62,851 nt of DNA from Shigella phage Ss-VASD, in sequence record KR781488; one strand, 5' to 3'. Below are positions 15,001-18,000 of this stretch, one piece after another (the first letter of the stretch is position 1; the number at the start of each line of letters is the position of its first letter). The position numbers are program-made.

Positions 15001-18000
15001 AGGTGTTTTGAGCACCATGAGGCAGAATATATCCCCGTTAATGCAGCATTGTCAAACGATCTGTTCTTTAAAGACTTAACGAGAAGCCTTTTCGGGAATT
15101 TCGATCTGACAGTCTTGAAATATCCTGTAGCGTGCGGCGCATTTCTTCCGTCAGATGCTTGAAGGCGTTAAATTCGGCGACAGCTGCATCGACGTTATAG
15201 CCGTTACGACGTAATTCATTAAATATGCGCATTGCAGGGCTTGGCATGTCGAATAAGACGGAGGTATCAAGCTGCAATGTATTTCTATCAACATAGTTCA
15301 TCGTGGCATAGGGGTGATGCTCTGAAAACCACGATAAAGGGAAATTGATATTCATCGCAGGATAAGACAGGGCCAGTTGTTTCTGTTCCCATAGTTGTTT
15401 TTCCATGCGATCGAATTCAGCAATGTAGGCTTCTTTGAAAGCGGCGGCTTTTTTGCCAGTGAACCCCATCACCAGGAAAACGAATCCGTTTTTGGTGATT
15501 TGGTACATTGGGCGTTGCTCGCCTTTGGCGTCGGTGTAGGTAACGTCCTCAAAATTGAGGGCGTTAAATTTCTCTGAGCATTCAATATTTGCAATGGCGC
15601 GCAATACGTTATCGTGTCGCTTGCAAAAATATTCGGCAACGGCAAAGGACGTAGTAACAGCGCGACCATTGGAAATGGTGATTTCAGGTTGAGAAAGGAC
15701 TGGGATAGTAGCCATAATGGCAGCCTCCTTGATTGGTGATTGATAACCACCGCTGGAGGTAGCAAGCTCGCTGGCGGTGGACTGTACAGGGTTGCTACAA
15801 CTGGCAATCAAGGGAACCAGCCCGACCGAAGTCGGCCCCATACAGCCCACCATTGATAAGATGTGCGTGTATGTCGATACAAAAAAAAGACGCTGGCGCG
15901 TCTGTATCGCCTCGATTGTCAGCGGGGTAGCAATCCCGACACCCGTTTTATGAGGTGTTCGCCAAATATAGCCCCGACATCACACGCAGTCAATACCGTC
16001 CTTTCTCAGAAACGCTTTGGCGGTGCCGCCTGCACCCCAAAACATTCCCTGTATTGGTCAGCGCCAACTTCCTGCCAGTGTTGCCCGTTCTCACGCCGTT
16101 CTCGCTCTCGCGCGGGGATACTCTCTCATCGACCGGATCGCACCCGATGATACAGCACGTTTACGTGTAGGGGTCTAAACAGGTCATTGACGCTGTAAAG
16201 CTCCAGATTGTTAAAGAGCATTTTGCGGCGGGTTAAGTCGCGCCGTACGACTGATTTATGTAGCCCTGTGTAAGGGCGCGATGTTTCTGGCTTGAAATAA
16301 ATATAACTTGCGGTGATTTTCATGTAAATACCGTTGGTGCTTTTTAAGGGCGAGAAATTATTACTTAACTGATTTTTAAAGTGATTTATTTTTTAAGGGG
16401 GCAGATAACAGGAGGGGATATGCAAAGAAAAACCCGGCGCATGGGCCGGGCTATTTATCTGGTCCTGTTCTCATTCAGTAGAGTAGGGGCCAAGAAATCG
16501 CACTCCGTTGAAGTGAATAAGATGAGAAGGTGCATCAGCCACCCATACCTCTGTTTCCCATGCGATTTCACCAAGATATCGCCCCATGATGGAGCGATTT
16601 GGAAAAGCGGTCACATAGACAAGTCCGGCTGTTGATCCGGCAAACAGCCTGGCAAGCTCAGCATGCCGCTTCCCATCAACCGGTCCATGACTGGTGACAG
16701 ACTCAACCAGTAGCAGCCAGTTTTTCGCAGTAAAATGTAGCACCACATCTGGCATTTTACCGTGTGAATCCACATCAACACCTAGCCCGGCCAGCAGTGG
16801 AGCGTCGAAGTAGCCCCACTTTTCGCCAGTGTCGCCAGCATAGACCAGCACGCTACCCGGAGCAAAACGTGGGGCGAAGTCCTCTATTATGGCACGGATA
16901 AGTTCGCTGTGCTCGCCGGGACTGAGGGTTATTTGCTGGCCCGCAGCAATTTCAACAGGGATACGATTCTGTTCGCGCTCCTTAGCATAGCGGGTAACCA
17001 GCGTTTCACGCTCGGCTAAATAGGTTGCAAGGCTATCGTGCCATGCCGGGCTGCCGAAAGTGCGTAGCATGGACAGAGCAGCAGGTTCGATCTGATAAAC
17101 AGCCTTCGGGCTGTTCACTGGGCGATCGGGCTTGTCCGGATTGTAGAGGGCTACTCCAGCAGCGCAGAACTGATGCATAGACTGGCGGCGGAATGTCTCA
17201 CGAGTATTGGGTGCGTAGACCTTGCCGTAGTGCTCCCGAACCCAATTCATGATTGGTGTAATGCCCACAAGCGGATTTTCCGCGTCGGCCCATGCTTTTC
17301 CCGGTGTGAGGTTCAGGAGTGCCAGCAAACACAAAGCAGAACGCTCATTCTGCTGCGCTCTGGGCAGGCCTAAGGATGCTATAATTTGCTGAGCGGCCTC
17401 AATATAATCATTTTGGTTGTTCATGCAGTCAGAGCTCCTAGCTTAGCGTCAATATGTTCTTGCGTGAGAGTTTCTTGTTGCATAGCCCACTTGCCAAGCT
17501 CTATCAGAGTGTCACGGCTTGGGTACTTAATCATCTTGAGGTCGGTTGCATTGACCTGTGTATGCCCGTTGAAGCGACGGAAGTACTTATCCACTGCGGT
17601 AGTGTTCAGGAACACGGCCAAGCCACGGGCCAGCGCCTCGGGTAACCCATGTTTGTTCTCATGAAACACGTTCATGTGATTTTCAAATCCCAACACTGAA
17701 TACTCACTGAAGGTAGCAGGATCAACGACGCTTGCTACCACTCGGCGCTTTTCCTCCTTCGACGAGAAACGACGCACCACACAATAAAAACCGTTCGGGT
17801 AAAGCCACTTTTCTGTCTCGTCGTTGCGCATGATTGCGTTGGGTTTCTTCAAACCTTCCACAGGCCAGACAGTGCTACTCATACTCAAATGGCTCGGGTA
17901 GATCAGGGGAACAGTTCCTTCTTCTGGCATGCTGCGCAAATGAGCTTTCAGTCGGAAATCAACTATCGGTCCGGTCGATACCTTCACGCCAATATCAGCC

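Follow-up and report, generated by a model that had tools for sequence, protein, structure and literature searches.

A candidate RNA-based early-left leader in a lambdoid Stx phage that lacks N

Shigella phage Ss-VASD (record KR781488; the full 62,851-nucleotide stretch analysed here is called the window) contains an interval, 15716-16470, between its cI and restriction-modification genes and its early-left genes, in which no N antiterminator is recognisable. The best overall explanation that we can offer, at a little less than an even chance, is that this interval is the pL leader of an N-less lambdoid Stx phage and is composed of RNA elements with no protein gene. These elements are a boxA and a conserved five-helix RNA behind a pL-like promoter, followed by an IsrK-family small RNA (sRNA), a C4-family antisense RNA and two target boxes in front of a Rha-family gene (Table 1). 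The sRNA, the antisense RNA and the boxes very probably form an RNA switch on translation of the antirepressor-like Rha gene, with the terminator of this region as the 3′ end of IsrK. All features named in a preliminary description of the interval are present in the sequence, each at most 1-2 nt from where it had been placed.

The -10 of the pL-like promoter is overlapped by an operator-like 17-mer, ATATAACTTGCGGTGAT (16301-16317), that matches the palindromic oR site TATCACCTTTGGTTATA (19703-19719) at 13 of 17 positions. This confirms the operator-like sequence described near 16300-16316, which reads ATCACCGCAAG at 16317..16307 on the minus strand. We infer promoter function from the consensus match and from the placement after the cI and restriction-modification genes, as in lambda and phi80. 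By itself the promoter scan carries no significance (6 sites found, 5.6 expected). An approximately 33/38 identical copy of the pL -10 and transcript-start segment (16262-16300) lies at ~20465-20505 on the minus strand, also pointing leftward, in the ORF34-ORF35 intergenic region of the pR operon. It may be an oop/M3-like antisense promoter.

The boxA-like sequence reported near 16212-16221 turns out to be better than described. It is a perfect 13-nt rrn-type boxA, TGCTCTTTAACAA, identical to the E. coli rrn consensus, and it is the only exact copy on both strands of the 62.8 kb, where about 0.002 copies of a given 13-mer are expected by chance. It lies ~73 nt after the predicted transcript start, near the 5′ end of the ~580 nt of untranslated RNA that separate pL from the Rha start codon, as expected of an rrn-type boxA (consensus UGCUCUUUAACAA). 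The window boxA aligns with the annotated 'nutL boxA' of phi80, and 74 distinct copies share the conserved form YGCTYTTTAACAA. Upstream of CRISPR arrays, a boxA is reportedly part of a widespread antitermination mechanism directed against Rho. The window resembles these arrays and the rRNA operons in having the exact consensus at the start of a long untranslated RNA, and differs from them in that its boxA stands in a phage operon and is followed by a specific folded RNA and intrinsic terminators.

The folded RNA is 124 nt long. RNAalifold and manual reading gave five helices: P1, a long-range helix of CCUGUU with the 3′ strand GGCAGG; P2, CCC/GGG; P3, a boxB-like hairpin CACG-UAAA-CGUG (16167..16156) that corresponds to the 'nutL core' of phi80; P4, nearly invariant including its loop (CAYCGGGYGCGAUCCGGUCGRUG); and P5, a hairpin with a GAGA tetraloop. 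The segment 16220..16033 is 94% identical to phi80 33142..32955 (188 nt), which occupies the same position after pL and oL. The phi80 record (JX871397) bears the labels 'nutL boxA; putative' and 'nutL core; putative', with pL/oL upstream and a gene called N downstream. In PA2-type Stx phages (locus L001, 5472-5781), 105 extra bp directly after the folded RNA continue the homology to the phi80 leader, which therefore points to a deletion in the window lineage at ~16033.

The same element follows the repressor gene in Klebsiella phages KO-TP1 and ST13-OXA48phi12.2 and in Edwardsiella phage Edno5, and in the annotated examples it always lies on the leftward strand after that gene. Pattern scans placed it in seven further enterobacterial genomes, the only real loci from a 20-mer scan of genome contigs that otherwise returned mostly chance hits in high-GC genomes, and in more than 120 IMG/VR contigs. 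This amounts to at least 134 copies in Enterobacterales prophages, with 76 distinct sequences over the full span from boxA to the element and 69 over the 124-nt core. Across ~90 Stx phage records the element and boxA are 99-100% conserved, and the element is always linked to pL and to a boxA ~30 nt upstream. Covariance model R2 hits the window once, at 149 bits, and each of 69 loci once, with no match on the phi80 right arm.

The helices are supported by covariation. In a MAFFT alignment of the 69 distinct sequences, 96.0% of cells are paired, against 31-45% with slid partners; nine pairs are changed on both sides, and the covariation score of 0.201 compares with 0.120 for shuffled alignments, none of 500 reaching it. 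A model-fitted alignment, which leans towards structure, has compensatory changes in 15 of 29 pairs, and across both alignments pairing holds in 96-97% of cells as opposed to 30-45% in slid controls. The boxA-linked five-helix RNA is annotated only as the two short putative nut boxes of phi80 and has no Rfam family: none matches the leader, even at E<=10 or with lax filters, and RefSeq E. coli records have no RNA feature under this region. We found no description of it in the literature searched, which did not cover the phi80-genome and put-like-RNA papers. The folded RNA deserves an Rfam-type family whatever its function.

The second part of the leader holds the terminator at 15881-15902 that had been called strong. 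It is present, and its strength is moderate (6 bp, -9.3 kcal/mol). Judged by the family match, it is the 3′ end of a predicted IsrK-family sRNA gene with its own promoter-like site, whose -10 stops 7 nt short of the start of the Rfam IsrK match. The terminator stem spans 15903..15888 (AGACGC-GCCA-GCGUCU) and is followed by U8 to 15880. IsrK carries two decoy boxes, a1 (UUGCUAC, 15933..15927, in a loop) and b1 (CAAUCGAGG, 15918..15910). The C4-like RNA, with a minimum free energy of -43.5 kcal/mol, exposes two segments, b′ (CCUUGAUUG, 15813..15805) in a large loop and a′ (GUAGCAA, 15798..15792) as a single strand. The target boxes on the minus strand are a2 (UUGCUAC, 15765..15759) and b2 (CAAUCAAGG, 15735..15727), and b2 overlaps the Shine-Dalgarno sequence AAGGAGG of the Rha gene (ATG 15716). 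RNAduplex on the whole RNAs gave long unspecific duplexes, and an exact-complement search was used instead. By this search b′ is the exact 9-mer complement of b2 and a′ the exact 7-mer complement of both a1 and a2; manual checking showed that b1 pairs with b′ over 9 bp including one G-U. IsrK and C4 annotations were not found in the phage or RefSeq records examined, and the two predicted RNAs are new members of known families.

The C4-like RNA is covered by an open frame (15716-15853, minus strand) that corresponds to Gifsy-1 orf45 and continues in phase into the Rha gene. For this reason several records give a fusion of 261 amino acids (aa), and others a separate 37-aa open reading frame (ORF). 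The 261-aa Rha form, with its start at 15853, runs across the C4 RNA and has probably been drawn too far upstream. PA2-type phages have the Rha gene annotated from the ATG equivalent to 15716.

A second cassette with the same logic and different recognition sequences lies at 15055..14812 on the minus strand. Behind its promoter-like site comes a leader with two decoy boxes, GCUCAAAAC (15013..15005) and GCAAGUAG (14998..14991), and a U7-tailed hairpin near 14958. Its Xcc1/C4-like RNA carries sequences exactly complementary (9-, 8- and 7-mers) to three sites, the two boxes and CAAGUAG (14829..14823), the last of these at the Shine-Dalgarno sequence of the ORF6N gene.

The arrangement recalls the immI region of phages P1 and P7, which has the design a1-b1, C4 (a′, b′), a2-b2. 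As in P1/P7 C4 and in the P4 CI RNA (seqA/seqC), the a′ and b′ segments of the window have upstream and downstream complements, and b2 coincides with the ribosome-binding site of the first gene, one that encodes an antirepressor or stands ahead of it. The window differs from P1, P7 and P4 in that a1 and b1 reside in a separately terminated sRNA, the target is Rha and not icd/ant, and the setting is a lambdoid Stx phage.

A close parallel in gene order is the Salmonella prophage Gifsy-1, in which isrK is followed by orf45/STnc1160 and the antirepressor gene anrP (Hershko-Shalev 2016, PMC4825925). There, termination of IsrK is incomplete: some transcripts continue past it as an mRNA that is translationally silent, and short IsrK acting in trans switches on translation of orf45-anrP and induction of the prophage. 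The same study links IsrK to P4 seqA and STnc1160 to the P4 CI RNA (PMC4825925). The window shares the order of promoter, IsrK with a leaky terminator, C4-like region and antirepressor-like gene, its IsrK is likewise complementary to downstream RNA, and membership of the Rfam IsrK family holds. It differs in its upstream neighbour, which is pL and the leader in place of antQ, in the in-frame fusion of the 'orf45' frame to the Rha ORF, in the Rha family of the downstream protein (the counterpart of AnrP) and in having the second cassette instead of isrJ.

We picture the sequence of events as follows. Transcription would start near 16293 at a CI-controlled pL-like promoter and proceed leftward. 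The boxA could recruit the host NusB/NusE-NusA-NusG-SuhB complex, as in rRNA operons, which would at least shield the ~580-nt untranslated leader from Rho, and the folded RNA may give the extra contact that N-boxB supplies in lambda and put supplies in HK022, with no phage N involved. Together, boxA and the five-helix RNA would modify RNA polymerase into a termination-resistant form. That they make pL-initiated polymerase termination-resistant without phage N is a possibility that we hold tentatively, with the balance tipped against it. The polymerase would then meet the IsrK gene, whose moderate terminator (6-bp stem, U8) would stop most unmodified transcripts and yield the short sRNA. Read-through RNA would bear the C4-type antisense RNA, two segments of which may pair with the boxes at the Rha ribosome-binding site and keep it untranslated, following the P1 immI logic. 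IsrK holds decoys of the same two boxes, and free IsrK could therefore titrate C4 and switch translation on, following the Gifsy-1 logic. For these IsrK, C4 and Rha steps we draw on family membership and sequence complementarity.

The preliminary description had suggested a cis-acting antitermination RNA similar to HK022 put, which works without a protein partner and through the beta′ zinc-binding domain of RNA polymerase. The part of this suggestion that stands is a conserved, structured, boxA-bearing leader RNA in the nutL/putL position; that it should be put itself is extremely improbable. Built from 14 put sequences, a covariance model gives 94 bits on HK022 putL, 86.7 on HK639 putL and 48 on HK022 putR. 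The put-element search that had been proposed, run with this model (R1), reaches at best 12.4 bits in the window (E ~0.1, 16253..16207), where the match resembles put stem I only; stem II and the conserved AAACCAUGCGUCGG core are absent from the window leader. Conversely, the model of the window element does not hit put sites, and membership of the HK022-type put family was rejected by covariance models in both directions. The likeness to stem I comes from a small hairpin in the window (Table 1), which is possibly a recombination relic or scar between put-type and boxA-type leaders.

The put RNAs nevertheless share the slot of the element. HK639, which has the same promoter-proximal leader as phi80, has a 'putL-like antiterminator RNA' annotated at the place that boxA and the element take up in phi80 and the window, and in HK639, too, only a left copy is annotated. 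Of 100 distinct contexts of the element, 63 have the leader-start motif ahead of it; for put the figure is 27 of 66. No fetched locus has both the element and put. The two are alike in lying just after pL behind the same motif, in excluding each other and in being structured RNAs, with no dedicated phage protein seen for the element. They have no likeness in sequence or structure by covariance models in either direction: put has two stems in ~70 nt, the element five helices in 124 nt, and the boxA that precedes the element was not seen in the put sequences examined.

No N homologue was found in the interval or elsewhere in the window. In tblastn searches of the whole window, phi80 'N' and HK022 Nun gave nothing (best E-values 2.8 and 0.3) and the N-family (N_peptide) protein of an Edwardsiella phage gave zero hits. 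The annotations of the near-identical phages P13374 and phi346 list Q as the sole antiterminator and no N. According to Llarena et al. 2021 (PMC8044961), no homologue of N, CII or CIII of lambda is present in phages of the Eru1 type, TL-2011c included, so the bare observation that N is missing was correct and is not new. A scan of all window ORFs for arginine-rich windows was uninformative, returning scattered and mostly out-of-frame hits. The 65-aa ORF that had been considered doubtful does exist at 16323..16126 on the minus strand, and we reject it as a gene: it has no PHROG hit, it overlaps boxA and the folded RNA, and the homologous core is stop-free in only 9 of 74 distinct copies. Its ATG sits between the -35 and -10 of pL, so the ORF is not on the pL transcript.

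A true nut site could still be served by an N analogue that escapes recognition, binds the element, especially the A-rich-loop helix P3, and is encoded elsewhere, for example by ORF34 (20028..20321) or a small early-left ORF. We consider this quite unlikely. Helix P3 is boxB-like, with the loops UAAA, AGAAA and AAAAA, the phi80 annotators chose the label 'nutL core', and in Edno5-type loci a Pfam N_peptide protein is encoded downstream. Lambda nutL and the window have in common that boxA stands in the pL leader ahead of a hairpin with an A-rich loop, and that terminators lie further downstream. The conservation runs the other way: P4, not P3, is the most conserved part of the RNA, its sequence and loop being invariant in hosts from Escherichia to Edwardsiella, while the covarying hairpin P3 forms part of a larger fold and has a loop that is free to vary, the opposite of what specific binding of boxB by an arginine-rich motif predicts. 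The window also differs from lambda in lacking N and nutR, in having the full rrn boxA consensus instead of lambda's variant and in ~90 further nt of conserved structure. A second nutR-type site in the pR operon was not found, as the window contains no second exact boxA and no second element; the gap between cro and ORF34 is only 30 nt. ORF34 (plus strand) is the first gene after cro, in the cII position. It falls in no Pfam family, and its PHROG, 852, is one of unknown function. It does contain an arginine-rich stretch, RKGNRARRSANTRLR, which counts in its favour; this stretch lies in the C-terminal half, and the gene belongs to the pR operon.

Furthermore, no protein family accompanies the element. 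Of 122 loci with enough downstream sequence, 11 have phi80 'N', 20 have IsrK/C4 and 91 have neither, and the Pfam N_peptide protein (PHROG 271) occurs only in two Edno5-type loci. Downstream of the element, kil and a 52-aa ORF recur, and the remaining ORFs are unrelated. This lack of a co-occurring protein suggests that the element is independent of proteins encoded beside it. The phi80 gene (locus L005, 2853-3149) is annotated 'early transcription antiterminator protein N, similar to lambda N' and has no N-terminal arginine-rich motif; its product falls into PHROG 25091 (unknown function) without a Pfam hit, and the assignment looks positional only. As a partner of the element it was rejected, with 11 of 122 loci and no N-family signature. 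The phi80 putative nutL is homologous to the window site and, as far as annotated, is also a left copy without nutR. In contrast to phi80, the window has no homologue of its 'N', and the conserved RNA is far larger than the two boxes annotated there.

As the preliminary description had supposed, the early-left transcript must cross an intrinsic terminator, with the IsrK terminator in its path. Leftward terminators facing pL transcripts in the window are this one, the weaker U-tract hairpin near 14958, and those at 4100..4082 and 1790..1773. Among 96 distinct loci, a stringent intrinsic-terminator pattern occurs within 1.5 kb downstream of the element on the same strand in 68 and on the opposite strand in 11.

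The element could instead be an orphan nutL, left without function when the IsrK/C4/Rha cassette took the place of the N gene in a phi80-like ancestor, with early-left genes expressed through leaky terminators and from internal promoters (that of IsrK and 15055..15026). We judge this unlikely, yet it is the likeliest of the alternatives. The phi80 homology stops at 16033, just before the IsrK promoter, where phi80 runs on into its 'N' gene, and the 105 more bp of phi80 leader retained by PA2-type relatives look like progressive deletion. The IsrK terminator is only moderate, two internal promoter-like sites are present, and the Gifsy-1 IsrK terminator is partly read through with no known antiterminator acting (PMC4825925). 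A relic is harder to reconcile with an element that is intact in all helices, with a perfect boxA, and retained at near identity in the Stx phage records, and with the invariance of P4 across host genera. In addition, the element lacks both phi80 'N' and IsrK/C4 in the 91 loci counted above, and the N-less state is therefore the rule for it.

A structured region in the N leader of lambda has roles in RNase III processing and in translational control. By analogy, the folded RNA might have a role other than in termination, as a processed sRNA, an RNase III or stability element or a translational operator, which seems distinctly improbable. Such a role would fit the large structured region between nutL and N in lambda (PMC5725501), as well as the very different genes that follow the element, as for a self-contained sRNA. 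It would not account for the constant link to pL and boxA, for the mutual exclusion with put at the same place or for the enrichment of terminators downstream, and the window has no terminator at the 3′ end of the element.

Several points weigh against antitermination by the boxA-linked RNA, the case for which is built on where it lies, how well it is conserved and what surrounds it. The promoters are assigned by consensus matches, which occur about as often as chance predicts. The structure prediction that had been proposed for the minus-strand leader gives five covarying helices, and the single-sequence fold is no stabler than shuffles (z = +0.92). With no thermodynamic support, the structure thus rests on covariation, and covariation tests can be inflated by the relatedness of the sequences. 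The 94-100% identity between phi80 and the Stx phages could reflect recent recombination instead of selection in an N-less phage. Annotators have read the same phi80 sequence as a nut site for an N protein, and two Edwardsiella-type loci have a genuine N-family gene downstream of the element. N diverges fast, and 31 of the 122 loci encode a small ORF with an arginine/lysine-rich N-terminus, so unrecognised N analogues are possible. Finally, rrn-type boxA complexes are known mainly for countering Rho and not intrinsic terminators, which Nus/boxA complexes are not known to pass efficiently; how the IsrK terminator is crossed would thus not be accounted for by boxA alone.

A bolder reading, which we put forward as speculation and think rather unlikely, is that the boxA-linked five-helix RNA represents a new class of cis-acting processive antiterminator that uses host factors only. 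It would be an analogue of put in function, unrelated to it in sequence and fold, and would allow read-through of intrinsic and Rho-dependent terminators from pL. On this reading it would serve as the early-left device of phi80-like phages and of Stx phages of the O104:H4 and O103:H25 outbreak type, and the phi80 'N' would not be an N.

Table 1. Features of the early-left leader and neighbouring regions of the window, with the evidence for each.
Feature	Position	Strand	Evidence
pL-like sigma-70 promoter, TTTACA-17-TATATT	16328..16300	minus	10/12 consensus positions
Small hairpin GUCGUACGGCGCGAC	16251..16237	minus	nearly identical to HK639/HK022 putL stem I; compare HK639 CAGUCGAACGGCGCGAC
boxA TGCTCTTTAACAA	16220..16208	minus	13/13 match to rrn consensus
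Conserved five-helix leader RNA, 124 nt	16187..16064	minus	phi80 identity, covariance model, covariation
Promoter-like site of IsrK-family sRNA, TTGACT-17-TATATT	15993..15965	minus	10/12 positions
IsrK-family sRNA	15958..15880	minus	RF01394, 15958..15883, 61.8 bits (gathering 50), model 1-77/77
C4-family antisense RNA	15857..15770	minus	RF01695 (clan CL00128), 77.4 bits (gathering 45), model 1-87/87
Rha-family regulator/antirepressor-like gene	15716..15068	minus	Pfam Phage_pRha, E 2.6e-32; PHROG 995/518/1760 (Rha-like, anti-repressor)
Second-cassette promoter-like site	15055..15026	minus	11/12 positions
Second-cassette C4-like RNA	14934..14851	minus	RF02221 sRNA-Xcc1, 79.6 bits (gathering 53), full-length
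ORF6N gene	ATG 14812	minus	ORF6N family match
Intrinsic terminator closing the leftward cI/methylase/restriction operon	16452..16422	minus	lambda tImm position; bidirectional hairpin
BsuBI-type methylase and restriction enzyme	18890..16471	minus	lambda rexAB position
cI, lambda-like	19698..18985	minus	

The segment 15600-16550 is 99.8-100% identical to the Stx2a phages P13374 (O104:H4), TL-2011c (O103:H25), phi191 and relatives of the genus Oslovirus. By this identity the window is an O104:H4/TL-2011c-type ("Eru1", Oslovirus) Stx2a phage. The operon of cI, methylase and restriction enzyme is closed by a predicted terminator with a stem at 16452..16431 (8 pairs, 6 of them GC), the tail TTTTCTTT and a folding energy of -14.5 kcal/mol. 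Beyond it, the minus strand carries in order the interval discussed here, the Rha-family gene, the ORF6N gene, kil, gam, recT, exo and ssb.

Stx2a phages of this type were those of the 2011 O104:H4 and 2006 O103:H25 outbreaks, and unusually unstable lysogens have been reported for them (PMC8044961). How their early genes run without N, CII and CIII has no explanation that we could find in the accessible literature. The interval offers two candidate control points. The first is an RNA-only switch, composed of the IsrK decoy, the C4 antisense RNA and the Rha antirepressor and duplicated downstream. It is of the kind that triggers Gifsy-1 induction in Salmonella and could feed non-SOS signals into Stx phage induction. 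The second is a widespread, uncatalogued leader RNA, which may represent a third way to achieve early antitermination, besides N/nut and put.

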